This document shows positions 4,776 to 17,714 of a DNA stretch of 17,714 bases, one piece after another. The stretch spans positions 7,064-24,777 of the forward strand of contig PSLL01000030.1 of assembly GCA_040289575.1 (NCBI GenBank). Direction: 5' to 3'. The translations under genes were made by a program, and so were the position numbers. Below the pieces are notes generated by a model. It was not told the origin of the DNA. It ran no database searches and worked only from the letters and a program-made list of their open reading frames with translations. Each line of letters begins with the position of its first letter. Within the stretch, counting starts at the first letter, position 1. Source of the stretch: Candidatus Dadabacteria bacterium. GTDB taxonomy: Bacteria; Desulfobacterota_D; UBA1144; Nemesobacterales; CSP1-2.

Positions 4776-4850
4776 TGGTGGCGGCGGCAGGAATCGAACC
4801 TGCGACAAAGGCCTTATGAGAGCCCTGCTCTACCTCTGAGCTACGCCGCC
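4776..4850 (-). tRNA. tRNA-Met(CAT), probably elongator
   Basis: GGCGGCGTAGCTCAGAGGTAGAGCAGGGCTCT-CAT-AAGGCCTTTGTCGCAGGTTCGATTCCTGCCGCCGCCACCA. G1-C72 is paired (not initiator); Ile2 cannot be fully excluded. Confidence 0.95.
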
Positions 4851-4903
4851 AGGCGTAATGATTACAGTAACTTAGGAATCCCTACTAGATACTACTACAA
4901 GAA

Positions 4904-4922
4904 TTCTACCCATTTTCTACCC
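4904..4922 (+). repeat. Direct repeat TTCTACCC x2, candidate integrase arm-type sites
   Basis: TTCTACCC at 4904-4911 and 4915-4922 (11-bp period), between the tRNA and the integrase start. Confidence 0.45.
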
Positions 4923-4959
4923 TTCCCTATCCAAATAAGCAACAAAAGGAGATTGTAGC

Positions 4960-5328
4960 ATGGGATACTTAACTTTCAAGGGGAAGAGCTATTATGCAAT
5001 TTTTGCTGTATCAGGTAGAAAGATTTGGAAGAAAATAGGTAGAGTAGATAAGAGAGAAGCTAAGAGAATCCTGAAACAACTATCCCTAGAGTTTGAGAAG
5101 GATAGATTAAATATCCGAGAAATCAAATATATCACTCTCTTTGATTACATAGAGAGATATCTAGAGTATTGTTTGGCTAATAAAGCCACCTCCACCTATA
5201 GGAGAGAAGCAGTAGTTATGAAGCCACAAAAAGAATTCTTTGGTAATATCCCAATAACTAGGATAGATACACAGATGATAGAGAGTTATAAAGTTAAAAG
5301 AGTTAAAGAAGGAAATAACGGCGAGTAA
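4960..5328 (+). pseudogene. Tyrosine recombinase/phage integrase N-terminal fragment (arm-binding plus core-binding SAM-like domain)
   Basis: Basic beta-rich N-terminus, DKREAKRIL, then ITLFDYIERYLEY...KATSTYRRE...FFGNIPITRIDTQMIESYKVKR. No catalytic RHRY domain. SD AGGAGA. Adjacent to a tRNA. Confidence 0.8.
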
Positions 5329-6678
5329 CTATTCGATTCGAAATTGTTTTAGCTTTCTGTAGAGAGTATCTCTTGAAATGCCGAGAATCTCAGCCGCCTT
5401 TGATTTATTCCCCTGAGCCCCACGAAGAGCCTGCTCCAGGGCGAACCTCTCAAGCTTCCCCAATGAAAGGAGTGTATGCTCCGAGACCTTATTCTCTTTC
5501 CACACAAGGTGTGCTTTTAAATCCCTCTCGGTTATCATCTCTTTATCAGTAGGAGATACGGCTATTATTCCTTCTATTAGATTCTCTAGCTCTCTAATGT
5601 TTCCGGGGAAGTGGTACTGATAAAGAGATGTGAATACACCTTCGGATACCCCTTCTATGCTCCTTGAATATTTCTGATTGAACTTCTTTATAAAATGCTC
5701 CGTAAGCAACGGAATATCCTCTTTCCTCTCTCTAAGTGGGGGAAGCTCCATTACCACAACTGCAAGCCTGAAGAATAGGTCTTCTCTTAAATATGTGTTT
5801 TTAAGCTCTTCTATAGAGCGATTGCTCGTGGCTATTACTCTTATGTCAACCGGTATCTCGCTTGTATGCCCTATCGGTCTTATTTTATGTTCCTCAAGAA
5901 CCCTAAGTAGCTTTACCTGAAGCTCTTTCGGCATCTCTCCTATCTCGTCAAGAAAAATCGTTCCCCTATTTGCTGCTACAAAGAGTCCGTCGTGGTCCTT
6001 CATTGCCCCAGTGAATGCCCCTTTCTTATATCCGAAGAGCTCCGATTCAATTAGTTCTTTAGGGATTGCACCGCAGTTTACTGCAATAAAAGGCTGGCCA
6101 CTTCTCTCACTCTTTAGATGTATAGTTTTTGCGAGGAGCTCTTTTCCCGTTCCCGTCTCACCGACAATAAAGATGGAGGCATCAGTGCGTGCTGCGGCAG
6201 TGGCTTTCTCAAACACACTCTTCATTGAACGAGAACTGCTTATAATCTGCTCAAAACCGAACTTCTCTGAAAGTATCTCCTTGAGTTCACTTATTCTGCT
6301 CTCAAGCTCGTGTGTCCTTTGGATTACTTCCAGCTTCCGCAGGAGTATGTCCTTGTCAAACGGCTTAGTAATGAAATCTGTGGCTCCACGCTTTATCGCC
6401 TCTACGGCAGTGGGTACGGTGCCGTGTCCAGTAATCATAATTGTATTTATATCGGGGTAAATCTCCTTAATCTTCTCAAGTAGTGTAAAACCGTCCATCA
6501 TCGGCATAACCAAATCTAAAAGGGCTACACAGATGTGAGCAAGAGCCGATACTTTATCAATAGCCTCTTTCCCGGAGAAGGCCGTGATTACCTCATATCT
6601 TCTTCTTTCAAGAAGCTCCTTTACGGCACTCACTAACTCTTCGTCGTCATCAACGACAAGCACACTACACTTATGCAA
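5329..6678 (-). CDS. Sigma-54-dependent response regulator (NtrC/AtoC family)
   Basis: REC domain (VVDDD, LLDLVMP, KPF), Walker A GETGTGKEL, GAFTGA, Walker B FLDEIG, FPGNIRELEN, C-terminal Fis HTH. Confidence 0.97.
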   Translation of the reverse strand: MHKCSVLVVDDDEELVSAVKELLERRRYEVITAFSGKEAIDKVSALAHICVALLDLVMPMMDGFTLLEKIKEIYPDINTIMITGHGTVPTAVEAIKRGATDFITKPFDKDILLRKLEVIQRTHELESRISELKEILSEKFGFEQIISSSRSMKSVFEKATAAARTDASIFIVGETGTGKELLAKTIHLKSERSGQPFIAVNCGAIPKELIESELFGYKKGAFTGAMKDHDGLFVAANRGTIFLDEIGEMPKELQVKLLRVLEEHKIRPIGHTSEIPVDIRVIATSNRSIEELKNTYLREDLFFRLAVVVMELPPLRERKEDIPLLTEHFIKKFNQKYSRSIEGVSEGVFTSLYQYHFPGNIRELENLIEGIIAVSPTDKEMITERDLKAHLVWKENKVSEHTLLSLGKLERFALEQALRGAQGNKSKAAEILGISRDTLYRKLKQFRIE

Positions 6679-8221
6679 ATGCTTTTTCCTCCGTATAAAT
6701 CGGAAGTCTTATCCAGACGCTTGTTCCTTTACCTTCCACGCTGTCTATACTGATTTCTCCATCATGGTCATGGATAATCCTTTTAGCCACGGAAAGCCCT
6801 AGGCCAGTTCCTTTACCTGCTGACTTAGTTGTAAAAAAAGGCTCAAAAACAAGCGGAAGAATGTCCTTTGGAATTCCCATCCCGGTATCGGATATTTTTA
6901 TATCCACCCACTCCGCCGGATTTCCCTTAGAGACGGTTACCGAAAGCTTTCCCCCTTTGGGCATCGCATCTACTGCGTTTGTTATTATATCTAAAAATAC
7001 AAGCTCAAGCAGATTAGCATCGGCTAATACCTTCAAATCCCTATCCACGCGTAAGTCAAGGTCAATTACCTGTCTTTTAGAAATAGGATTTATCATATCT
7101 ACGGCTTCTTCAATAAGTACGGAGACTCTCTCAGAAACCCTTTCACTCTGTGGCTTATTTACAAATCTTAGAAGCCTTTGGATTACTTTCTGACCATAGA
7201 AAATCTGCCTTTCAATGGAGTCAAGCTTCTCGGTAAAATCTGCATACTCTGGGACTCTGGGTATATCCTCTTTAAGCATTTGAACCCTGAGGAGTATGGA
7301 TGCAAGCGGGGTTCCCAAGTGATGGGCGATTCCTTCTGCCATCTTTCCTATTAGCTGGGCCTTTTCGAGCTCTATTATTTTACTCCTGAAGGTGATCCTT
7401 TCACTTATATCCCTTATGATTTCAATAAAGCTGCCCCCTCCCTCATTCGCATAGACGAGTGAAACACTCACAAAAATCCTTTCCCCATTTCCCTTTATTT
7501 TCTCCGTCTCGTAATCTACTAGTTTACTCCCTTGTTTCACACTCCTGAGTTTTTCGTAAAAACTAGTCTTACTGTCCTGTGGTATGATATCCCAGATATT
7601 TTTAAGCTCTTTTTTACCGTCATCACAAAATAACCTTTTTGCTTCTCTATTTATGGTAATCACTTTGCCTTGCTCATCATAGACTAAAATTGCGTCAGCG
7701 GTGCTATTAATAATAGCCTCTAGCTTTTCCTCGTTTTCTCGAAGTGCTTGTTCTGCTCGCTTACGCTCTGTTATATCAACAACGGCACTTAGAACTAGAA
7801 CCCCTTCATTTGTATGGATGGGGTTAAGACCGATTTCAACGGGAAATTCGCTCCCGTCCTTGCGCAGAGCGGATAGGTCTCGGCCCTTTCCCATCGGCCT
7901 GGCCTGGGGGTTGGCATAAAAATCTAAACGGTATTCAGAATGTTTTATACGGAATCTTTCCGGCACCAGAATCTCTATTGACTGTCCGATTAGCTCCTCT
8001 CTACTGTAGCCAAACATCCTCTCTGCCTGGGAGTTGACGAGAACGATTTTACCCTTCTGATTGACCATTAATATGGCATTGGGAGACGACTCTACGACGA
8101 GATGAAATCTCTCCTCTGCCTGATTGCGCTTGATCTCTAGTGCTTCCAACTCAGCAATTCGTCGGCGCGCCTCTACCAGTTCATCTATTAGTTGTCTTTT
8201 TGTCTTAAACTCGTCTTGCAT
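6671..8221 (-). CDS. Cytoplasmic PAS-PAS sensor histidine kinase (first PAS FixL-like)
   Basis: Likely start ATG 8221 (MQDEFKTKRQLIDEL coiled coil); two PAS domains; H-box AHHLGTP, N-box DIITNAVDAM, DTGMGI, FEPFFTTK, GTGLGL; no TM helix; 8-nt overlap with the regulator gene. Confidence 0.93.
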   Translation of the reverse strand: MQDEFKTKRQLIDELVEARRRIAELEALEIKRNQAEERFHLVVESSPNAILMVNQKGKIVLVNSQAERMFGYSREELIGQSIEILVPERFRIKHSEYRLDFYANPQARPMGKGRDLSALRKDGSEFPVEIGLNPIHTNEGVLVLSAVVDITERKRAEQALRENEEKLEAIINSTADAILVYDEQGKVITINREAKRLFCDDGKKELKNIWDIIPQDSKTSFYEKLRSVKQGSKLVDYETEKIKGNGERIFVSVSLVYANEGGGSFIEIIRDISERITFRSKIIELEKAQLIGKMAEGIAHHLGTPLASILLRVQMLKEDIPRVPEYADFTEKLDSIERQIFYGQKVIQRLLRFVNKPQSERVSERVSVLIEEAVDMINPISKRQVIDLDLRVDRDLKVLADANLLELVFLDIITNAVDAMPKGGKLSVTVSKGNPAEWVDIKISDTGMGIPKDILPLVFEPFFTTKSAGKGTGLGLSVAKRIIHDHDGEISIDSVEGKGTSVWIRLPIYTEEKAFA

Positions 8222-8415
8222 CTTATACCCACAGATGGGCTTCTTTGGGCTACTGGTGAGATTTTTTACAAACTTAAATAATGGACACAAATTGAATAGG
8301 GCTTAGAGAACCCAGTACTGACCGTTATCTAGATATATCCTTAGTGTCCTTTTCATGAGTGTAGCATCCCATTAACTAGCTTACAAGTTAGGCCAAAAAG
8401 CGATTATTTATCTTA

Positions 8416-9003
8416 TCATAAATAGAGGCTATAGAATTCAAACCTTCTTTCCCAATCCTCAAGGTTGTAAGATGCAATTACAAGGTCTTTATGCTCTCCA
8501 CTCTCCTCACATTTAACATAGCAATTAAACACCGCTTCTGGTCTGAAGCTCAAGTTATCTAGTATTCTGATAAAACTCTTACTGTCAGGTGTAAATCGTA
8601 CAATAATCTTTTCAAAGCCGTGCTTTAATCCCTCTGCTAAAAGAGCCTTAAACATTTGGGAACCCAGTCCCTTTCCTCTATGATCCGGGTCTACAATTAG
8701 CTTGATCTCTACCGCATGTTGCCAGTAAAGCCCCTCTTTATGGAGTGTCCCGTTTGCTATAATCTCACCGCTCTTTATGGCAACCAGTTGGAGGATCTTT
8801 TTATACATGGAGTTTGTAAACCAGCTTTCTATGGTCTCTAAATTTCTCACATCATCCTTGTAAATTAGGAGATCCGATTCCGGTATCTTGGAGAAGAATT
8901 TGGATAAATTCTCTAGGTTTCCTTCCTCAAGGGGTCTGAGTATTATTTTTGTTGCATTCTTAAGTACTAATTCTTTGGGATACACAACTTCAAATTTACG
9001 CAA
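8416..9003 (-). CDS. GNAT-family N-acetyltransferase
   Basis: Acetyl-CoA binding motif A VDPDHRGKGLGSQM; N-terminal YPKELVLKN...LRPL. Real start may be GTG 8985. Confidence 0.88.
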   Translation of the reverse strand: MRKFEVVYPKELVLKNATKIILRPLEEGNLENLSKFFSKIPESDLLIYKDDVRNLETIESWFTNSMYKKILQLVAIKSGEIIANGTLHKEGLYWQHAVEIKLIVDPDHRGKGLGSQMFKALLAEGLKHGFEKIIVRFTPDSKSFIRILDNLSFRPEAVFNCYVKCEESGEHKDLVIASYNLEDWERRFEFYSLYL

Positions 9004-9014
9004 GGTTTATGCCA
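9000..9014 (-). promoter_or_regulatory. Sigma-54 -24/-12 promoter (GNAT-kinase-regulator direction)
   Basis: TGGCATAAACCTTGC: GG-N10-GC, close to the TGGCAC-N5-TTGC consensus. Confidence 0.75.
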
Positions 9015-9213
9015 TAAGTGGTTTCCGTGTCTTACTAAAGCTATATATCCAAATCCGATGAAAAGGTGCTAGGGTGTAAGACCTCGGCAAGGTGCATTAA
9101 TTATTAGGAAATCCAAGGCTAAAAATGAGATGAACAATTTTGTAAATCATAAGCCAATGATCTTTCAAGGATTTTAGTGGAGTGAAAAAATGAATAAATT
9201 GATGTAAAAAAAT

Positions 9214-9238
9214 CGTCCTATTATTGGACAACTGACAC
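9214..9238 (-). promoter_or_regulatory. Candidate enhancer (bEBP upstream activator sequence)
   Basis: Minus strand GTGTCAGT-TGTC-CAATAATAG-GACG, matching the motif at 10462-10486; lies between divergent sigma-54 promoters. Confidence 0.6.
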
Positions 9239-9289
9239 GGTGTTTGGTTTATCTATAATTCTAAATCTAATTATCCTTAAATTACTCAA

Positions 9290-9304
9290 TGGAATAAAAT
9301 TTGC
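9290..9304 (+). promoter_or_regulatory. Sigma-54 -24/-12 promoter (ATPase direction)
   Basis: TGGAATAAAATTTGC: GG (9291-92), N10, GC (9303-04), about 70 nt upstream of ATG 9376. Confidence 0.6.
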
Positions 9305-9375
9305 CCATTTGCACACTCTTAAAATGTTTTTTGACTAATCATAATTATATATATCATTCATAGTAAATAAGATAG

Positions 9376-10440
9376 ATGAAAAATCTAAGACAACCGGATC
9401 CCGGGAAGTCAATATTAAGGCATAGACAGGGTGCCTTTACAGTTTTTACTATTGCCGCAATTCTGCCGCACCTTATACTGCGATTTGGTTTAAAAACAGA
9501 TACCGAGATTTATGGTTTGTCTCCGAGCGAAATGCCCCTTATTGCCAGTCCAAATTAACCGAGATTATTCCATCTCCAAGTTTTAAAGAGAAAGAGGTTC
9601 TTCATCTTGTTGCCAGTCTGGAATGTTATTCCAAGCATCCTCTATCCGGTGCAATGCTCAGTGCGGCGAAGAATGCCGACTTGAATCTACTGGAGGCAAG
9701 TGAGATTAGTGAGCGTCCTGGAGAGGGGCTGAGTGGAACTATAGACAGGTGCAAAATCTGGATTACCAGCCGCGGTAAACTCGTAGCTCAATATCCTGAG
9801 ATGGCAGATAAGATACCGCCTTCATCGGGAGGCCTCGAATGTGTAATTATGATTGATGGTTCCTATGCCGGAACGTTCCGTTTTAGAGACCAACTGTGTA
9901 CCGATGGGGCTTCTTTTATACATCACCTGAAACCAAAACACGGTTTTGAAAGGGTTATGGTTGTTTCCAGAGATCGGGAGTCTGAAGTATGTTATCCGGC
10001 TGATCAGGTTGGAATTAAGGAAATATATTCCGGTCAAAGCCCGAAGCAAAAACTAGAACTGGTTCGCGAGGAAACTAGATGGGCAAAAACCGTTTTTGTG
10101 GGAGACGGCATTAATGATGCGCTAGCCCTTTACCACGGCTACAGTGGGGATTGCGTTTGGTCAGCAAAGTGACATCACAGCTGAAGCGGCAGGAGCAGTA
10201 GTCATGGAAAACTCTCTCAAGAAGGTTGACGAGTTTCTGCATGTCAGCAGACGTATGCGATCTATTGCACTTCAAAGCGCTGTAGGAGGTATGACTTTGA
10301 GTATGTTCGGTATGATCTTAGCCGCTGGGGGTTATCTGCCCTCAGTTGCCGGAGCTATTGCTCAAGAAATTATTGATGTCTTTGCGGTTATAAACGCGTT
10401 GCGTGTATCATTTCCTCCCAAATCCCTTTCTGATTATTAG
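9376..10440 (+). pseudogene. P1B-5-type heavy-metal P-type ATPase pseudogene
   Basis: N-terminal TM fragment (9376-9550) is joined out of frame to KLTEI...SKHPL (N domain). SRD replaces S/TGD. GDGIND is followed by a frameshift. C-terminal [14 protein letters not shown] and [11 protein letters not shown] are P1B-5 helix signatures. TGE, TPCP and DKTGT regions are absent. Confidence 0.88.
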
Positions 10441-10461
10441 TTCGTGGATAAACAAATCCGG

Positions 10462-10486
10462 GTGTCAGATGTCTTAAATTCTGACA
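10462..10486 (+). promoter_or_regulatory. Candidate enhancer (bEBP upstream activator sequence)
   Basis: GTGTCAGA-TGTC-TTAAATTCT-GACA, about 77 bp upstream of a sigma-54 GG; IHF-like TTTCAA-CAAA-TTA at 10533-10545 lies in between. Confidence 0.65.
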
Positions 10487-10561
10487 TATATGACTTTTCT
10501 AAAAATGGAATTCCTCAAACAAATCTTAAATATTTCAACAAATTATATATATTGAATTTAG

Positions 10562-10577
10562 CGGTATATAGTTTGCT
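10562..10577 (+). promoter_or_regulatory. Sigma-54 -24/-12 promoter of the USP/PHA operon
   Basis: CGGTATATAGTTTGCT: GG (10563-64), N10, GC (10575-76). Confidence 0.7.
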
Positions 10578-10661
10578 AAAAGACTATAGAGATTAGTGGA
10601 AAGAAATCAGTATAATCATAAGTTGGAGAGCAGAGAAGATTAAGGGGTGTTATGAGGAGTA

Positions 10662-11383
10662 ATGATGATTAATAGGATATTATGGGCTTGTGACGGATCT
10701 AAAGACTCAATCCAGACATTGGGGTATGCGGAGATTTTAGCAACGAGGTTTAAGTCAGAGATATTGGGTCTTTTTGTCATACCCGATTACTACAATGTGG
10801 CGGAAAAGATTCCTTCAGATGAGAAGGATAAATTTATTAAGTGGGTTGAGGAGACCAGATCAAGAGAAAGGAAAACACTTGAGGACATTGCGAGAGATTT
10901 TAAGGAAAAAGGAATTAGGTTCGGAATCGAGGTCACAAGCGGTATTCCTTACAAAGGGATTCTTAGAGTCGCCGATAGGAATAAAGCAGACCTTATTGCT
11001 ATGGGGAAGGGAAGGCTAGTCGGTGAGTCTATTCTGGGGGGGACGGCGCTTAAGGTTCTAAGGCAATCCCCGGTCCCGGTTTTAACTGCTAGAGAGGGTA
11101 ACAAGAGCCCAGATATAAAGAAAATATTAGTACCCACGGATACATCTCCCAGGGCATCAAAATCACTTAAGTACACGGTTGAGTTATTAAAAGAATTTAG
11201 TGCGAACATCTACCTGCTTAATATAGTTGAGGTTGGAGAGTATGATCTTCCGATTGAGATAGTCGAAAGGATGAAGGGATTTTCCTTCAGGGAGATTGAG
11301 GAGAATATAGGAAAGACCTCAGTAGTATTGCGGAGAAGGTCATTCAGGAAGCATCATGCCCTGTTATAACAATGAAGCCTTAA
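10662..11383 (+). pseudogene. Tandem-domain universal stress protein, second domain internally deleted and frameshifted
   Basis: Domain 1 intact (RILWACDGS...DLIAMG...LGGTALKVLRQSPVPVL). Domain 2 breaks after NIGKT (about 11317). The true C-terminus SSIAEKVIQEASCPVITMKP* is in another frame at 11321-11383. Confidence 0.85.
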
Positions 11384-11425
11384 TCGAAGATTAGGCACGC
11401 ATCATGGTGCCTCACGGGGGTCTTT

Positions 11426-12319
11426 ATGGAGATAAAAAAAATTCTCTGGGCATCCGATGGCTCAAATGAATCTGAGGAGGCCTTAAGGTACGTAGAGTTA
11501 TTTGCAAACAAGTACGGTTCTGAAGTTGTTGGTCTGAGTGTGATTCAGCCCGTCGATTTAAGTGGCCTAAAGGTTACTTCCGAGATAAAAAAAGAGTTGG
11601 TCTCAATCCAGGCAACCCTAGAGAGAAGGGAGTATGAGAGGATCAAAAAAGCCCTGGAACAACTCGAACCAATGGAGATAAAATGGGATATAAATATTAG
11701 GACAGGTGTGCCGCATGAGGAGATTCTTAAGGTTGCCGAGGAAGAAAAGGTTGATTTGATTGTGATGGGAAAGCGGGGATTGGGACTTAAGGATAGAATT
11801 CTCATCGGGAGCAATACGAACAAGGTTTTAAGGGCGGCAAAGGTGCCTGTTTTAGCCGTAAGACATAAAAAGGGGAATAGATATAAGACTGATATAAAGA
11901 AGGTACTGGTTCCTACGGACTTATCGGAATCTACATCTATATCATTAGACATTGCCGTGGATTTAGCCGAGAGGTTTCATTCTGCAGTCTATCTCCTCCA
12001 CGTTATAGAGCTTCACCATAGCTATGAAAACTCGGCTGGTAGAGTGATAGAGGAGCTATGGACTCTGGCGATAAAAGAATTGAAGCTTCAACAGACTAGA
12101 ATCCCTGAAGAAAAGATAAAAGGGATTAACGTGTATGAAAAGGTAACCCTGTTCTTGAGAGCCTGGTTTGGTGTAGTGGATTTTGCGGAGAAAAAAGGGA
12201 TTGATCTTATTGTTATGACTACACATGGAAGAAAGGGTTTTTCAAGGTTTATTTTGGGAAGTGTGACTGAAAAGGTTATAAGTGAGTCTCCGTGTTCGGT
12301 TTTAGCAATAAAGCCCTAA
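11426..12319 (+). CDS. Tandem-domain universal stress protein
   Basis: Two Usp domains with DLIVMGKRG...IGSNT and DLIVMTTHGRKG...LGSVTEKV motifs. Confidence 0.95.
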   Translation: MEIKKILWASDGSNESEEALRYVELFANKYGSEVVGLSVIQPVDLSGLKVTSEIKKELVSIQATLERREYERIKKALEQLEPMEIKWDINIRTGVPHEEILKVAEEEKVDLIVMGKRGLGLKDRILIGSNTNKVLRAAKVPVLAVRHKKGNRYKTDIKKVLVPTDLSESTSISLDIAVDLAERFHSAVYLLHVIELHHSYENSAGRVIEELWTLAIKELKLQQTRIPEEKIKGINVYEKVTLFLRAWFGVVDFAEKKGIDLIVMTTHGRKGFSRFILGSVTEKVISESPCSVLAIKP

Positions 12320-12349
12320 AAAGTTAACATTAAAATAGGAGAGAAACAG

Positions 12350-12760
12350 ATGACAGAGGTAAAGAGAAAAACTCCAGAAGTTAGTATATCACGGCTGATT
12401 GAAGAACTCGGTCGGATAGGCATCGAGAATTACATGAAGGGACTTGAGTTCTTAATGTCCGTTTGGGGGGATAACTTAAACCTGTTTAATAAGCAGGTTG
12501 ATCTGTTGGTTAGTGCCCAAGAGGATTATACCCAAGTAATTAAAGATTTATATAATAGGTTAACTCCGCAACACCTATACGGCCAAGATTCAAAAGGAAT
12601 AACTACCCAGATCGAGCGCATGTTTGTCATTCAGAGGGATTATATAAATGAGATGAGAAATACATTTAATAGAACCTTCAAAAACGTGATAGGTCTTAAC
12701 CAAAATGACTTAGAAAAATTTATCTCTCTCTTTGTAAAGTATCTGGATCTCTTAGGATGA
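12350..12760 (+). CDS. Small helical protein, phasin-like (PHA granule-associated) candidate
   Basis: 136 aa, SD AGGAGA, amphipathic helical pattern, few Pro and no Cys; upstream of PHA-metabolism genes. Function is inferred. Confidence 0.6.
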   Translation: MTEVKRKTPEVSISRLIEELGRIGIENYMKGLEFLMSVWGDNLNLFNKQVDLLVSAQEDYTQVIKDLYNRLTPQHLYGQDSKGITTQIERMFVIQRDYINEMRNTFNRTFKNVIGLNQNDLEKFISLFVKYLDLLG

Positions 12761-12904
12761 AAAAATGCTGAGAAAAGTACTACAGCGTGCGATTTTAGCC
12801 CTGAAACCATGGGTAATTCGGCAAATATCTGAAACAGAATCTCAGCAACTAAGACTAATTATAAAATATCCCTAATGGGATTGTGTTTTAGGTTTAAGAG
12901 TCCT

Positions 12905-13417
12905 ATGATAGATAGAGTGTGCTTTTTTCTGTTCCAGACTCCCAAAGAAAGCGCTGGGAGAAGTGGAATAGCGTCCCATCCTACAATGAGGTATATATTA
13001 AAGCCAAGGAGACACTGGGTCCTGATCCGTATAAAAGCCAAAACGACCGGATTTTTATTGTTTATAGGGCTTGGGGACATACATTTAATCCTTTTTATGT
13101 AGAAATCTTTACGTACAAGACTTGGTGGTTCATGAGAGGACCGGAGGCTTATAATGCTATGACATACAAACTAATATTAAGGGTGAAGGTTCTGATTCTC
13201 TATTTAAGGCGAAGATGACGACATACTCGATCCATGGGAGGCTAAAGAATTATCCCGTCTGGTTTGTGAATCGAGGAATTCTGACGTAACGGTGAGATAC
13301 ATACCAAAAGCCGGCCATGATTGTATGGAAAACTTTGACGAAACTGTAAGAACCATAGTCAATTGGGTTTATTCTCTTGATTCAAAAGGAGATAAAAAGG
13401 ATAACAATAACCCGTGA
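12905..13417 (+). pseudogene. Alpha/beta-hydrolase C-terminal relic
   Basis: ORF 12919-13218 ends RVKVLILY. A shifted frame at 13208-13417 continues GEDDDILDPWEAKEL...YIPKAGHDCMENFDETVRTIVNW (acid and His motifs). No nucleophile-elbow region was found. Confidence 0.65.
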
Positions 13418-13466
13418 ACAAAAATATATGTGTGTTAAGATAAATAAAAAGCCAAGGAGATAAATA

Positions 13467-13898
13467 ATGGATATACGAAAGATACTTTTCCCTACTGATT
13501 TTTCCCTATATTCGAAAAAGGCGAGGGAATACACGCTCTATTTAGGAGAAAGACTCAATGCGAGCATATACATACTCCATGCTATAGAGCCTTTAGACTA
13601 CCCCGATGTAGATGAGGAGATCAAGCGATTCTATAAAGGACTCGAAGCCCAGATGGAAGACAAGCTAAAGGAAGAGAAAAAAATCTTTGAGAAAAAAGGG
13701 CTTCGAACCGAGACAAATATAGTTATAGGGTCGCGCTGGCGTGTCATCAATACATTCGCAAAAGAGAAGAATATTGATCTAATCATAATGGGTTCTCATG
13801 GGCTTAAAACTGAAACCGGTCAGGTTGTTATAGGAACCACAAGTCATAAGGTGATTTTTTCATCACCCTGCCCGGTCTTGTTGGTGAGATACGAATGA
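13467..13898 (+). CDS. Universal stress protein (single domain)
   Basis: KILFPTDFS...DLIIMGSHG...IGTTSHKVIFSSPCPVLLV; SD AAGGAGA. Confidence 0.95.
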   Translation: MDIRKILFPTDFSLYSKKAREYTLYLGERLNASIYILHAIEPLDYPDVDEEIKRFYKGLEAQMEDKLKEEKKIFEKKGLRTETNIVIGSRWRVINTFAKEKNIDLIIMGSHGLKTETGQVVIGTTSHKVIFSSPCPVLLVRYE

Positions 13899-14153
13899 TA
13901 AAAGCTCAGCATAGCGCTTGGCGTGGCCAAGACCGATGCGCTGAGAAGGTGGCGATTTGTAGGACTCATCCACTCTTACAATCCACCATATGGGGATTCG
14001 GCTCAATTTATCAAGGCGAGTTCTTTCCCGGATAGGCAAGACGGTGATTTAGTGATAACAGACTTTATGAAGGCACATTTCTGCAAGCCCCCGAATTCTA
14101 CCGACATAAGATTCAGTAAACCATAGAGGGCAAATAATATAGAGAGGGCAAGA

Positions 14154-15281
14154 ATGATGAAAGAAGAAAAACACGAGCTTTTCAAGTTCCCTGAGGTCGG
14201 TGTTCCGTTCCTTTGGCCGTTTGCGTTCTTTCTCGGATTGGAAAAGGCGGGACTAGAGGTGCTCAGAGATAATATCAAGTTTTTAAGGGAGGTTGATAAA
14301 ACACAGGTCGAAAGACCGGAGCCTAAGTGGGCAACGAAGAATAAGATAATACTCAATCTACATACAATGAATCTGAGGGACTTTTCTATTGAGAGCAAGG
14401 GTATATACACACTTATTGTTGCCCCTTTTGCTGGTCATACATCAATCATAGCCGATTTTCATAAAGGGCAGAGCCTTGTTGAGGCTTTGATTGAGAACGG
14501 GATTAAGAGGGTGTGCGTTACGGAGTGGAAAAGCGCGACTGGGGCAATGAAGGATTATGATATTGATATATATCTAGGTGAATTAAACACATGCGTTGAT
14601 GATTTGGGTGGGGTCGTGAATCTAGTTGGTCTGTGTCAGGGTGGGTGGCTCTCTACAATGTATGCTGCGAGGTTTCCCAAGAAGGTGAATACACTCGTTC
14701 TTGCAGGAGCGCCGATAGATACAGGGGCTGGGAAAAGTAAGATTAAGGATTACGCACATACCTTCCCAATGGAATTCTATGAAGAACTCGTTGTACTGGG
14801 AGGGGGTATTTTAAAGGGGAAATTCATGCTTGAGGGGTTTAAAAGCATGCATCCGGAGAAGCAGTATTTCGAGAAGTTCGTAGAACTGTATGAGCACATT
14901 AATGATCCCAAATACGTTAAGAGGTTCGAGGCATTCGAGAGGTGGTACGAATATACGATTGATCTTCCCGGGAGGTGGTATCTTCAGGTAATTAGGGAGC
15001 TGTTTAAAGAGAATAGGCTATTCAAAGGAAAGTTTGTAGGGCTTGGAAAGAGGCTAGACCTAAGAGACATAAAGCACCCTGTATATCTGTTGGCAGGGGA
15101 GAAGGATGATATAACACCCAAGGAGCAGGTTTTTAATGCCGAAAGGCGCCTCGGAACTGCCAAAAGCAAAGTTGTAAAGGATACAGCGGCCGGTGGACAT
15201 ATAGGTCTTTTTATGGGATCAAAGCCTCTTAGGGAGAATTGGCCAAAGATTGCCAAATGGATAAAAAGATATTCGGAATAG
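14154..15281 (+). CDS. PHA depolymerase/synthase-like alpha/beta hydrolase (Cys nucleophile)
   Basis: IVAPFAGH, GLCQGG nucleophile elbow, LAGAPID, AGEKDDITP (Asp), GGHIGLFMG (His); resembles intracellular PHB depolymerase and PhaC-like proteins. Confidence 0.85.
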   Translation: MMKEEKHELFKFPEVGVPFLWPFAFFLGLEKAGLEVLRDNIKFLREVDKTQVERPEPKWATKNKIILNLHTMNLRDFSIESKGIYTLIVAPFAGHTSIIADFHKGQSLVEALIENGIKRVCVTEWKSATGAMKDYDIDIYLGELNTCVDDLGGVVNLVGLCQGGWLSTMYAARFPKKVNTLVLAGAPIDTGAGKSKIKDYAHTFPMEFYEELVVLGGGILKGKFMLEGFKSMHPEKQYFEKFVELYEHINDPKYVKRFEAFERWYEYTIDLPGRWYLQVIRELFKENRLFKGKFVGLGKRLDLRDIKHPVYLLAGEKDDITPKEQVFNAERRLGTAKSKVVKDTAAGGHIGLFMGSKPLRENWPKIAKWIKRYSE

Positions 15282-15304
15282 TCTGGGAGGGAACAATATT
15301 TATT

Positions 15305-16696
15305 ATGGAATATATTGAGAACAAAACATTTGATGAGATAAAGGTGGGCGATTCGGCAAGCCTTGTCCGCACCCTGACAATGAATGACATTGACCTTTTT
15401 GCATTGATGTCGGGCGACATCAACCCCGCCCGTGTTAGAGCGCAATGGTTCCATAGAATCATTGCCCATGGTATGTGGGATGGGTCGTTGATCTCTGTGT
15501 CGTTGATCTCTGTGCTGATTGGAACGAAACTGCCAGGCCCCGGCACTATCTATCTCAGTCATACATTGGGTTTTAAAAAGCCGGTCATACCAGGGGATAC
15601 ACTCACCGTAACGGTAACCGTCACGGTGAAGGACGAGAAAACGCACCTCGTCAAGTTAGACTGTCAATGTGTAAATCAAAACGGTGATATAGTCATTAGC
15701 GGCAGCGCCGAGGTTATTGCCCCAACAGAAAAGATAAAACTCCCACGTGTAATACTTCCAGAGGTACATATGCACAACCATGGTGCGCGTTATAGGCAAT
15801 TAATTGATCTTACCAAAGGCTTAGAACCGATTCGTACGGCAGTTGTCCATCCGGTTGACAGAAATTCGCTTCTTGGAGCGATTGATGCGGCGGAGGCTAA
15901 ATTAATTATTCCTGTCCTTGTTGGGCCTGACTCTAAGATTCGTGCCGTTGCTGAAATCGAAGGTATAGATTTGTCGTCTTACGAATTAGTCACGACAAAG
16001 CACAGCCACGAAGCGGCCGCAAGAGCCGTAGCTATGGCCCGCGCCAGTGAGGTTGAAGCCCTGATGAAGGGCAGCTTGCATACAGATGAATTAATGCAAG
16101 AAGTGGTTGATAAGGACACCGGGCTCCGCACCGAACGCCGGATAAGCCATGTCTTTGTAATGGATGTTCCCACATATCCACGTCCTCTGCTTATTACGGA
16201 TGCAGCTATTAACATCTATCCCGATCTGGAAGATAAACGTGACATTGTACAGAACGCTATTGATCTGGCTATTGCCTTGGGAATCGAAAACCCAAGGGTT
16301 GCGATACTCTCAGCCGTTGAAACGGTAACCCCTAAGATTCAATCCACTCTAGAGGCGGCGGCTTTGTGTAAGATGGCGGATCGCAAGCAAATTACAGGGG
16401 GAATAGTTGACGGTCCGCTTGCATTTGATAATGCAATTTCTGAGGAGGCGGCGAGGATAAAGGGCATCGTTTCACCGGTTGCTGGTAAAGCCGACATCCT
16501 GGTGGTGCCTGATCTTGAGTCCGGCAATATGCTGGCAAAACAGTTGGAGTACTTGGCTGAGGCGCAGTCTGCGGGGATTGTGCTTGGGGCGCGTGTGCCG
16601 ATTGCGCTGACCAGTCGAGCAGACAATACATTGAGTCGAATGGCCTCTTGTGCAATCGCCCTGTTGTTGGCACGCAAGAGGAGGTCAAAGCTATGA
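15305..16696 (+). CDS. pta: Bifunctional MaoC (R)-enoyl-CoA hydratase / phosphate acetyl(butyryl)transferase
   Basis: Start ATG 15305 after GGGAGG; MaoC-like ENKTFDEIKVGD...AHGM...LPGPGTIY; PTA/PTB motifs LMKGSLHTD, TDAAINIYP, DGPLAFDNA, GNMLAK, LTSRAD. The MaoC catalytic motif looks damaged. Confidence 0.93.
   Translation: MEYIENKTFDEIKVGDSASLVRTLTMNDIDLFALMSGDINPARVRAQWFHRIIAHGMWDGSLISVSLISVLIGTKLPGPGTIYLSHTLGFKKPVIPGDTLTVTVTVTVKDEKTHLVKLDCQCVNQNGDIVISGSAEVIAPTEKIKLPRVILPEVHMHNHGARYRQLIDLTKGLEPIRTAVVHPVDRNSLLGAIDAAEAKLIIPVLVGPDSKIRAVAEIEGIDLSSYELVTTKHSHEAAARAVAMARASEVEALMKGSLHTDELMQEVVDKDTGLRTERRISHVFVMDVPTYPRPLLITDAAINIYPDLEDKRDIVQNAIDLAIALGIENPRVAILSAVETVTPKIQSTLEAAALCKMADRKQITGGIVDGPLAFDNAISEEAARIKGIVSPVAGKADILVVPDLESGNMLAKQLEYLAEAQSAGIVLGARVPIALTSRADNTLSRMASCAIALLLARKRRSKL
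15485..15514 (+). repeat. Perfect 15-bp tandem duplication in the MaoC domain
   Basis: TCGTTGATCTCTGTG x2, encoding SLISV-SLISV. Confidence 0.95.
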
Positions 16697-17714
16697 ATGA
16701 GGTTATACTCGTGATAAATGCCGGCTCATCGAGTATTAAATTTTCGATCTTCGCAATCGAGAACAGCGAGAAATCCCTTGCCTTAGTATATCGAGGGGAG
16801 ATAGAGGGAATCGGCACTCAACCACGCTTTTTTGTGAGTGATAATACTGGCAAGCGCTTATTAGACAAACATCTGACAACCAAAATCGCCAATAGCCTCA
16901 ACCATGAAGATGCACTTGCCGTCTTACTGGATTGGATTGAAACTCATGCCGCTGGATTAAGAGCCATTGCGGCTGGCCACAGGGTTGTTCATGGTGGCGC
17001 GACCTTTTCTAAACCTGTGATGGCTGATTCCGTAGTAATTAGCCAATTGGAGGAGCTGATTGCGCTGGCGCCATTACACCAACCTCATAATCTTACCGCA
17101 ATTAAAGCCTTGGCTAAGATTAAACCCAATCTACCACAAATCGCCTGTTTCGATACCGCATTCCATCACACTCAGCCACCCATCGCTCAGTTATTTGCTT
17201 TGCCAAGGAACCTATTGGATGCAGGTGTGAAGCGCTACGGCTTTCATGGACTCTCATATGAATACATCGCTTATGTTCTTCCAAACTTTGTGGGTACTGT
17301 GGCAAATGGTCGTGTCGTAGTGGCTCATCTGGGCAATGGAGCCAGTATGTGCGCCATGAAAGGTCGAAAGAGCATCGCCACAACTATGGGCTTTACAGCA
17401 CTCGATGGCCTGCCAATGGGGACGCGTTGCGGAGCCGTTGATCCTGGAGTTGTTCTCTACCTAATGGGTGAACGAGGCATGGATGTCTCTGAATTAACGG
17501 ATCTGCTCTACCATAAGTCTGGTCTTTTCGGTGTGTCGGGCATTAGTAGCGACATGCGTGAACTGTTGGAAAGCAACTCCCCACACGCCTCTGAAGCGGT
17601 TGACCTATTTGTTTACCGGATTGGCCGTGAATTGGGCTCTCTTACTGCTGCCTTAGGTGGACTCGATGTGTTGGTTTTTACTGGGGGCATTGGTGAGAAC
17701 GCCGCCGCCGTTAG
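16693..17714 (+). CDS. ackA: Acetate/propionate kinase (3' end outside the window)
   Basis: ATGA overlap with the pta stop. MNEVILVINAGSSSIKF, HRVVHGG, LAPLH, FDTAFH, RYGFHGLSY, HLGNGAS, MGTRCG, FTGGIGEN. Frame is open to the window end. Confidence 0.97.
   Translation, partial: MNEVILVINAGSSSIKFSIFAIENSEKSLALVYRGEIEGIGTQPRFFVSDNTGKRLLDKHLTTKIANSLNHEDALAVLLDWIETHAAGLRAIAAGHRVVHGGATFSKPVMADSVVISQLEELIALAPLHQPHNLTAIKALAKIKPNLPQIACFDTAFHHTQPPIAQLFALPRNLLDAGVKRYGFHGLSYEYIAYVLPNFVGTVANGRVVVAHLGNGASMCAMKGRKSIATTMGFTALDGLPMGTRCGAVDPGVVLYLMGERGMDVSELTDLLYHKSGLFGVSGISSDMRELLESNSPHASEAVDLFVYRIGRELGSLTAALGGLDVLVFTGGIGENAAAV

Follow-up and report, generated by a model that had tools for sequence, protein, structure and literature searches.

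A three-gene operon that encodes a GNAT acetyltransferase, a PAS-PAS histidine kinase, and an NtrC-type sigma-54 activator probably (we put it at roughly 75%) acts as the master switch for low oxygen in Dadabacteria of sediments and the subsurface. It lies in a 17,714-nt stretch of a Candidatus Dadabacteria genome (G000, 3.06 Mb, 95% complete; contig C50, positions 7064-24777), hereafter the window. The first PAS domain of the kinase (PAS-A) likely binds heme, and as O2 falls the kinase would phosphorylate the activator, a polarity (on without oxygen) assigned by analogy with FixL. The activator would then engage a 24-nt enhancer placed in helical phase beside sigma-54 promoters and turn on dormancy genes, high-affinity oxidases, a clade II nitrous oxide reductase, and its own operon, the last of these giving positive feedback. 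The parts of the switch in the window are as follows:

8416..8985, minus strand: GNAT acetyltransferase, first gene of the operon, with a Pat-like fold and a very short leader (Pfam, fold and sequence matches)
6671..8290, minus strand: soluble PAS-PAS histidine kinase (PAS-PAS-HisKA-HATPase by Pfam), true start probably near 8221
5329..6678, minus strand: NtrC-type sigma-54 activator with receiver, AAA+ domain with GAFTGA, and Fis helix-turn-helix (HTH) (Pfam and residues)
9000..9013, minus strand: sigma-54 promoter (-24/-12) of the GNAT-kinase-activator operon (matrices trained on relatives)
9214..9237, no strand: enhancer 1, slightly degenerate, between two divergent promoters (matrix scan)

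The comparison covers 61 Dadabacteria-type genomes, in 30 of which the kinase is found (kinase-positive) and 31 of which are kinase-negative; they are related by descent, so that all genome and site counts overstate independence. The triad is the sole conserved part of the neighborhood, several of the relatives' flanks ending at contig ends. In all kinase-positive genomes but one, 29 of 30, the GNAT gene immediately precedes that of the kinase; the exception is G037, whose contig begins inside the kinase. Neighbors vary by family: universal stress proteins (USPs), HSP20, CBS, ADH, PFOR, and ribonucleotide reductase in f1, and a cbb3 oxidase cluster in f2, f3, and f6. The original prediction called for a kinase/regulator pair traveling with usp, a polyhydroxyalkanoate (PHA) hydrolase, maoC-pta, and ackA; the GNAT-kinase-activator synteny is conserved, but the linkage to the PHA hydrolase, maoC-pta, and ackA is confined to G000 and G001. 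In a genome-wide scan, full-length kinase matches at 51-64% came from at least seven records with Dadabacteria, Thermodesulfobacteriota, Desulfobacterota, or Deltaproteobacteria metagenome-assembled genome labels. The remaining matches among those listed are at most 37% identical, which does not imply absence outside the phylum, and the named top matches of further searches bear the same group labels except for one "Ignavibacteriales" label.

The activator retains receiver Asp55, Walker A and B, GAFTGA, and the Fis-type HTH, and its orthologs are 62-86% identical with a near-invariant HTH. As is typical of an NtrC-type protein, it is accompanied by rpoN in the genome and by upstream sites paired with -24/-12 promoters. 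The rpoN gene occurs in 53 of the 61 genomes, and G000 encodes about 13 sigma-54 activators (about 12 besides this one). Among 120 genomes of the phylum, 44 encode orthologs of the GNAT protein at 44% identity or more; these genomes belong mainly to families f1 and f2, and none is from f7, f8, or f9. Its structural model (predicted local distance difference test score of 80) matches first the GNAT domains of PatZ and Streptomyces Pat (SlPat); the top sequence match is 3f8k, with small-molecule acetyltransferases scoring almost as high. The leader of this master operon is very short because the GNAT start lies about 14 nt past the -12 element; among 25 relatives, 23 have their nearest plausible start 13-22 nt past it.

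The enhancer was found by a palindromic Gibbs search, from random starts, of the GNAT-upstream regions of 25 relatives, with G000 left out. The search converged on TGTC-N9-GACA, which an extra half-site 7-8 nt away extends to a three-half-site element of 24 or 25 nt. When G000 was scanned with the de novo motif, the top four matches all had an adjacent sigma-54 site, and the next 56 had none. The strict 24/25-nt pattern matches 221 times in the 61 genomes versus 6 times for a reversed control, with up to 25 predicted sites per genome, and is found in 29 of 30 kinase-positive versus 2 of 31 kinase-negative genomes. A sigma-54 site falls within 300 nt of 142 of the 163 enhancer sites for which DNA was fetched, versus 221 of 2295 control positions (9.6%). 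Enhancer-promoter spacings cluster at 41-45, 50-56, 62-67, and 73-77 nt, with a phasing of R=0.70 at an 11-nt period (n=147). The operon promoter is seen at the corresponding position in 20 of the 25 relatives' regions, and a perfect copy of enhancer 1 stands at the same place in G001. The activator is predicted to bind the 24-nt enhancer directly. An IHF-like motif in the enhancer-promoter spacers was rejected (13 of 147 versus 18.2 in shuffles).

Targets, taken as the first genes behind the promoters, were tabulated for 30 genomes, with complete site lists for some only; regulon membership is read throughout from DNA sites, not from expression. The most frequent are the GNAT operon itself (18 genomes), USP genes (11), a ccoI-led cbb3 oxidase operon (10), CBS (9), HSP20 and a TIGR04053 radical SAM protein (8 each), and YbaK (5). 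A ribosome hibernation factor, RtcB, ACS, PpsA, ADH, and a P-type ATPase appear in three genomes each, and hemerythrin, nitroreductase, and cytochrome c peroxidase are also among the targets. Three small unnamed families (136, 80-87, and 77 amino acids (aa); for example L034:8831-9241, L182:1152-1415, and L118:10354-10587) lie behind the enhancer in four to five genomes each. G000 has five enhancer-promoter groups by refined matrices, two in the window and three on contig C88, and one further strict match (C59:153040) that lies inside an open reading frame (ORF) and has no promoter. Its C88 targets are an oxidase operon, a cytochrome c-nosZ-nosDFLY operon, and an AAA_33 kinase. The oxidase is one that we take to be ba3-like from its general likeness together with COX1, COX2, and SCO matches; its subunit I is split into two ORFs (L067:1159-2798) and is intact, at 544 aa, in G004.

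The nitrous oxide reductase is the most constant metabolic target. Counts for nos were redone by hand because the target clustering had lumped COX2 proteins into the nosZ cluster. The nosZ gene is present in 30 of the 61 genomes, 28 of them kinase-positive (three without upstream DNA) and two kinase-negative. The enhancer precedes the cytochrome c-nosZ operon in all 25 kinase-positive genomes with upstream DNA and in neither of the two kinase-negative ones, and the -24 element lies 42-46 nt from it in 23 of the 25. The -12 element varies, reading TC in seven f2 promoters and GT in one (G005); the TC-type promoters (L361, L362, L365, L375-L377, and L158) conserve a spacing of 43-44 nt. G000 NosZ passes the TIGR04246 cut-off for the Sec-dependent (clade II) type, with a score of 938 against 625.

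Known nos regulators, so far as the accessible portions of PMC1274295 and PMC5582078 go, belong to the Crp/Fnr family, apart from NsrR in one species. A Crp/Fnr HTH was not found in G000, and full-length Crp/Fnr proteins occur in 10 of the 61 genomes, 9 of them kinase-positive. G024 has a split activator ortholog, a nos operon without the enhancer, and no enhancer sites at all; the kinase was not found there, and a Crp/Fnr gene encoding N-terminal cysteines lies beside the nos operon (L380:7838-9198, L371:3394-4125). A regulator swap in G024 is possible. No FNR box above chance was found in the window or ahead of the G024 nos operon. A literature search, with subscription papers mostly outside its reach, found neither sigma-54 control of nos nor this regulator or its site. 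Likewise, no description of this regulator was found in the Dadabacteria literature, including the available part of bioRxiv 2020.06.22.165886, subscription papers and preprint supplements being outside that scope.

The closest solved structures to PAS-A are heme-PAS domains: FG214 (best), FixL, and DosP. His117 of PAS-A aligns with the proximal His156 of FG214 and with the heme-ligating His of FixL, and it is kept in all 29 other orthologous sequences that have PAS-A. The conserved Met133 aligns with Met172 of FG214. The pocket is predicted to be open and gas-binding, because a Gly stands in place of the distal His175 of FG214 and the FixL-type G-x-G-R is present. Additional PAS or GAF domains at the N terminus make the kinase orthologs vary in length between 484 and 957 aa, and all 20 aligned kinases share an atypical H-box, AHH(M/L)(G/S)TP. 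A second kinase of 415-430 aa with the same H-box and without a heme-type PAS occurs in four f1 genomes (L046:2165-3412, L047:5787-7076, L048:14089-15375, L049:13861-15111). It is itself behind an enhancer in G003 and G010 and may supply the activator of the triad with a second input.

Several observations weigh against a low-oxygen switch of this design. HisKA H-boxes usually carry Glu or Asp where this one has His, so that kinase activity is not assured from the sequence. The evidence for the enhancer is partly circular: the training set accounts for up to 25 of the 221 matches as well as 20 of the promoters, and the strict pattern was drawn up once the matches in G000 were known. No canonical promoter accompanies 21 of the 163 sites, and many have a variant -12 element. 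A cbb3-like operon on contig C86 of G000 has no enhancer. G009, which is 93% complete, has three enhancer-promoter pairs, and no ortholog of the kinase, GNAT protein, or activator was found in it. This last case, together with the roughly 12 other sigma-54 activators of G000, would fit an enhancer bound by another regulator, with the two-component pair as just one of its targets. That arrangement is very improbable: four genomes with rpoN and 6-10 other sigma-54 activators but without this one (G007, G017, G018, G056) have no strict match, and G024, with its split ortholog and a Crp/Fnr gene beside nos, has no site either.

A further adverse point concerns the signal. FG214, the best PDB match of PAS-A, is described in the available part of its preprint as a redox switch, not an O2 sensor (bioRxiv 10.64898/2026.03.15.711900). 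The same wiring could accordingly serve a heme-PAS that reads redox state, NO, or CO, and the Met133/Met172 alignment as well as the presence of nosZ, hemerythrin, nitroreductase, and cytochrome c peroxidase among the targets are in keeping with it. However, the FG214 distal His is a Gly here and the FixL-type G-x-G-R is retained, and cbb3/ba3 oxidases, USP, CBS, HSP20, and hibernation factor are outputs typical of oxygen limitation in the accessible portions of PMC11841059 and PMC6515984. Such a signal is improbable, and oxygen is the one predicted for the master switch.

The proposed switch resembles several known systems. The DosRST system of mycobacteria combines GAF-heme kinases with a NarL-type regulator, without sigma-54, and controls USPs, HSP20, CBS, a hibernation factor, a phosphoribosyltransferase, an AAA_33 kinase, a cation ATPase, and nitroreductase. 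The output list is similar to that of the Dadabacteria system, but the GAF-heme kinases and the NarL-type regulator are not shared. The FixLJ-FixK2 system of rhizobia has a heme-PAS kinase with the proximal His and G-x-G-R, and its outputs include cbb3, USP, CBS, PhaC2, and nos (PMC6515984, PMC5582078, as far as available). Its output passes through FixJ and a Crp/Fnr protein, whereas in Dadabacteria the sigma-54 activator itself would deliver it, and in most of the genomes concerned no full-length Crp/Fnr protein was found. Both FixL heme-pocket features are present in PAS-A, yet the kinase scores below the FixL family cut-off (NF041777, 202 versus 850 bits), and its partner is a sigma-54 activator, not a FixJ-type protein. 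FG214 (PDB 10JX) has the proximal His and the Met position in common with PAS-A but is, in the available preprint text, a one-component HTH regulator whose distal His has no counterpart in PAS-A (bioRxiv 10.64898/2026.03.15.711900). Hpk2-Rrp2 of Treponema denticola has the two-protein design predicted here, a heme-PAS oxygen-sensing kinase paired with a predicted sigma-54 activator; according to the accessible part of PMC12070737 its regulon is unstudied, and neither a GNAT protein nor an enhancer is described there.

The nearest published regulon is NmpRSTU of Myxococcus xanthus, in which a sigma-54 activator, when oxygen is limiting, drives USP, CBS, cbb3, HemN, and hemerythrin genes (PMC11841059, from its accessible text). 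The original prediction knew of no described example of such a sigma-54 regulon, and this is one. The two systems have in common an NtrC-type activator, sigma-54 promoters, a heme oxygen sensor (a predicted one in Dadabacteria), and autoregulation, as well as USP, CBS, P-type ATPase with cbb3 oxidase, oxygen-independent heme enzyme, and hemerythrin targets (by sites in the present case). In the same accessible text, NmpRSTU has a protoglobin kinase, a four-protein inverting relay, a GCGCA-N5-TGCGC site, and seven bound promoters, with no mention of nosZ, whereas the Dadabacteria system has a single PAS-PAS kinase without a globin domain, a co-transcribed GNAT protein, and the three-half-site TGTC-N9-GACA element. 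The NmpR site was not recovered by the de novo search, which gave TGTC-N9-GACA instead; no scan was aimed at it. By the features compared, the Dadabacteria system is a member of none of these groups. The core of the original prediction, a FixL-like kinase and a sigma-54 activator driving a DosR/FixK-type low-oxygen output, is very likely right in view of the enhancer distribution, promoter pairing, targets, and heme-PAS likeness.

On the plus strand of the window, the operon faces a divergent arm:

9291..9304, plus strand: sigma-54 promoter 52 nt from enhancer 1, directed toward the P1B ATPase relic (matrix scan)
9406..10440, plus strand: broken P1B ATPase, with residues 67-340 of the 639-aa G001 ortholog deleted and frameshifts (comparison with G001)
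10463..10486, no strand: enhancer 2, highest-scoring site in the genome (matrix scan)
10563..10576, plus strand: USP-operon sigma-54 promoter, separated from enhancer 2 by 75 nt (matrix scan)
10662..11380, plus strand: USP1, tandem-domain, frameshifted near 11306-11324, ORF ending at 11369 (Pfam)
11426..12319, plus strand: USP2, tandem-domain, intact (Pfam)
12350..12760, plus strand: 136-aa phasin-like protein (paralogs; no Pfam family)
12916..13396, plus strand: relic of an alpha/beta hydrolase of about 300 aa, in two pieces (intact beside the regulator in other genera)
13467..13898, plus strand: USP3, single domain (Pfam)
14154..15281, plus strand: Cys-nucleophile hydrolase of the PHA synthase/depolymerase family, Cys-Asp-His motifs present (Pfam, family profiles)
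15305..16696, plus strand: MaoC-phosphate acyltransferase fusion (family profiles)
16693..17714, plus strand: acetate/propionate kinase ackA, continuing past the window (Pfam, family profiles)

All genes named in the original prediction are present (kinase, NtrC-type activator, P1B ATPase relic, three USPs, 136-aa ORF, hydrolase, MaoC-Pta, and ackA), but its inventory had overlooked the GNAT gene and the alpha/beta-hydrolase relic. It had also placed a GG-N10-GC promoter before every transcription unit of a self-contained regulon. Only three sigma-54 sites stand out, none of them before USP3 or the PHA/Pta/AckA genes, and the three enhancer-promoter pairs on C88 extend the regulon beyond the window. 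Enhancer 1 is assigned to both divergent promoters, and enhancer 2 to that of USP1. Matrices trained on relatives found no sigma-54 site or enhancer from 10577 to the window end, and plus-strand GG-N10-GC is absent from every gap after USP1. Looser signals were discarded: GG-N10-GC by itself carries no information, occurring 90 times in the window, and both GG-N9-TGC (24 found, 22.4 expected) and the textbook consensus with three mismatches (7 versus 8.9 expected) occur at chance. USP2 to ackA would therefore be reached solely by read-through of more than 7 kb from the promoter at 10563; no strong plus-strand terminator was found between that promoter and ackA.

The divergent arm in the window is decaying, with damage to the P1B ATPase, USP1, the alpha/beta hydrolase, and the MaoC domain, and the G000 regulon, with its five enhancers, is small and partly decayed. 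P1B-5 ATPases are marked by PCP in TM6 and QEXXD in TM8; the intact G001 protein carries both, and the relic retains QEIID alone, the rest being deleted. The short USP1 product recurs in other assemblies. In the MaoC domain, the His of the D-x4-H motif of G001 is missing, and there are a small deletion and a duplication. The 136-aa protein has no Pfam match. It belongs to a family of six helical members of 136-173 aa, with paralogs on contigs C12, C69, C82, C86, and C111 of G000, one of which adjoins phaE/phaC and another of which matches Phasin_2 weakly (E=8e-5, below cut-off). The six are candidate lineage-specific phasins.

The original prediction saw the point of the system in PHA mobilization, that is, a local module turning stored PHA into ATP via acyl-CoA, acyl-phosphate, and acetate kinase at low oxygen. 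Such a module is rather unlikely. The gene order is common to G001, the run from 10563 to ackA shows no strong terminator, and G000 has a class III phaC with phaE (on C12). A second acyl-CoA-to-ATP route is suggested by an ADP-forming acyl-CoA ligase-like gene following the hydrolase in G008 and G014 and, by N-terminal likeness, in G002 and G018. However, the PHA/Pta/AckA block flanks the regulator in only 2 of the 30 kinase-positive genomes and has no promoter of its own. Close orthologs of the hydrolase occur in eight other genomes, and in the seven besides G001 no enhancer was found in the fetched DNA. The enzyme scores below the family cut-offs for both PhaZ (TIGR01849, 95 versus 300.75) and class III PhaC (TIGR01836, 134.9 versus 365.3), and the MaoC domain is damaged in the window.

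The reverse, in which the regulon promotes PHA synthesis as a low-oxygen electron sink with Pta and AckA supplying or draining acyl-CoA, is doubtful as well, if slightly less so. An enhancer-driven PHA gene in G002 is synthase-like, with 341 bits on class III PhaC (cut-off 365), and relatives lie behind enhancers in G005; the window enzyme itself scores higher on PhaC than on PhaZ, and in the available part of PMC6515984 Bradyrhizobium PhaC2 is induced by microoxia. On the other side, the window enzyme is far more PhaZ-like than the true PhaC of the genome (95 versus 28 bits), phaE is not adjacent to it, and the annotation of a plasmid protein with 58% identity reads "PHB de-polymerase domain protein". 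The G002 gene stands in an enhancer-driven locus (L381:7835-10992) with rtcB and a second GNAT paralog that is 37% identical.

Membership of Pta-AckA in the regulon is supported independently of the window. Of 18 MaoC-Pta loci in 16 genomes, those of G002, G014, and G028 are maoC-pta-ackA sets directly behind an enhancer and promoter, and two are the G000 and G001 copies; the other loci show no enhancer within 1.5 kb. An ackA gene is behind an enhancer site in G005. Because these enhancer-driven loci are separate, acyl-phosphate metabolism entered the regulon on several occasions. In G002, an unrelated 474-aa ORF stands between an enhancer-promoter pair and a cluster of hydroxyacyl-CoA dehydrogenase-like, DUF3141-like, and maoC-pta genes (L322:450-6558), possibly an interrupted fourth regulon copy.

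Elsewhere in the window, sigma-70 promoters and terminators are not enriched, an Rfam scan returned two tRNAs and nothing else, and a repeat search gave nothing relevant. Among six intergenic gaps, 12755-12900 alone folds better than shuffles (z -2.6). Positions 4776-5328 hold a tRNA-Met(CAT) and then the N-terminal stub (122 aa) of a phage integrase, which stops at the end of the activator gene; an insertion or rearrangement may have left it as a scar. An IS200-like transposase fragment lies at 214-474.

The system is real, conserved, and testable. Its operon, its enhancer with the adjacent sigma-54 promoters, its target genes, and their joint distribution are evident from sequence; heme binding, oxygen as the signal, the polarity of the kinase, direct binding by the activator, and positive feedback are predicted. 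A sigma-54 hypoxia regulon is not new as a principle; new here are the different sensor, the different site, and the link to nosZ, and it is the phylum-wide enhancer with this link that is the notable part, not a self-contained PHA module. More tentatively, the phylum may have swapped the Fnr/FixK layer for one heme-PAS/sigma-54 switch, which would turn on clade II nitrous oxide reductase together with high-affinity oxidases and a dormancy program, with the Pat-like GNAT protein tuning the switch or its targets by lysine acetylation and so tying oxygen sensing to acetyl-CoA status. For an uncultured phylum, the analysis predicts a global oxygen regulon and specifies its binding site exactly, so that one gel shift and one reporter can test it. 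If the reading is right, it reveals yet another way in which these low-oxygen genes have been independently wired and would provide the first sigma-54 enhancer defined for nosZ, and the site would predict when these N2O consumers turn their reductase on.

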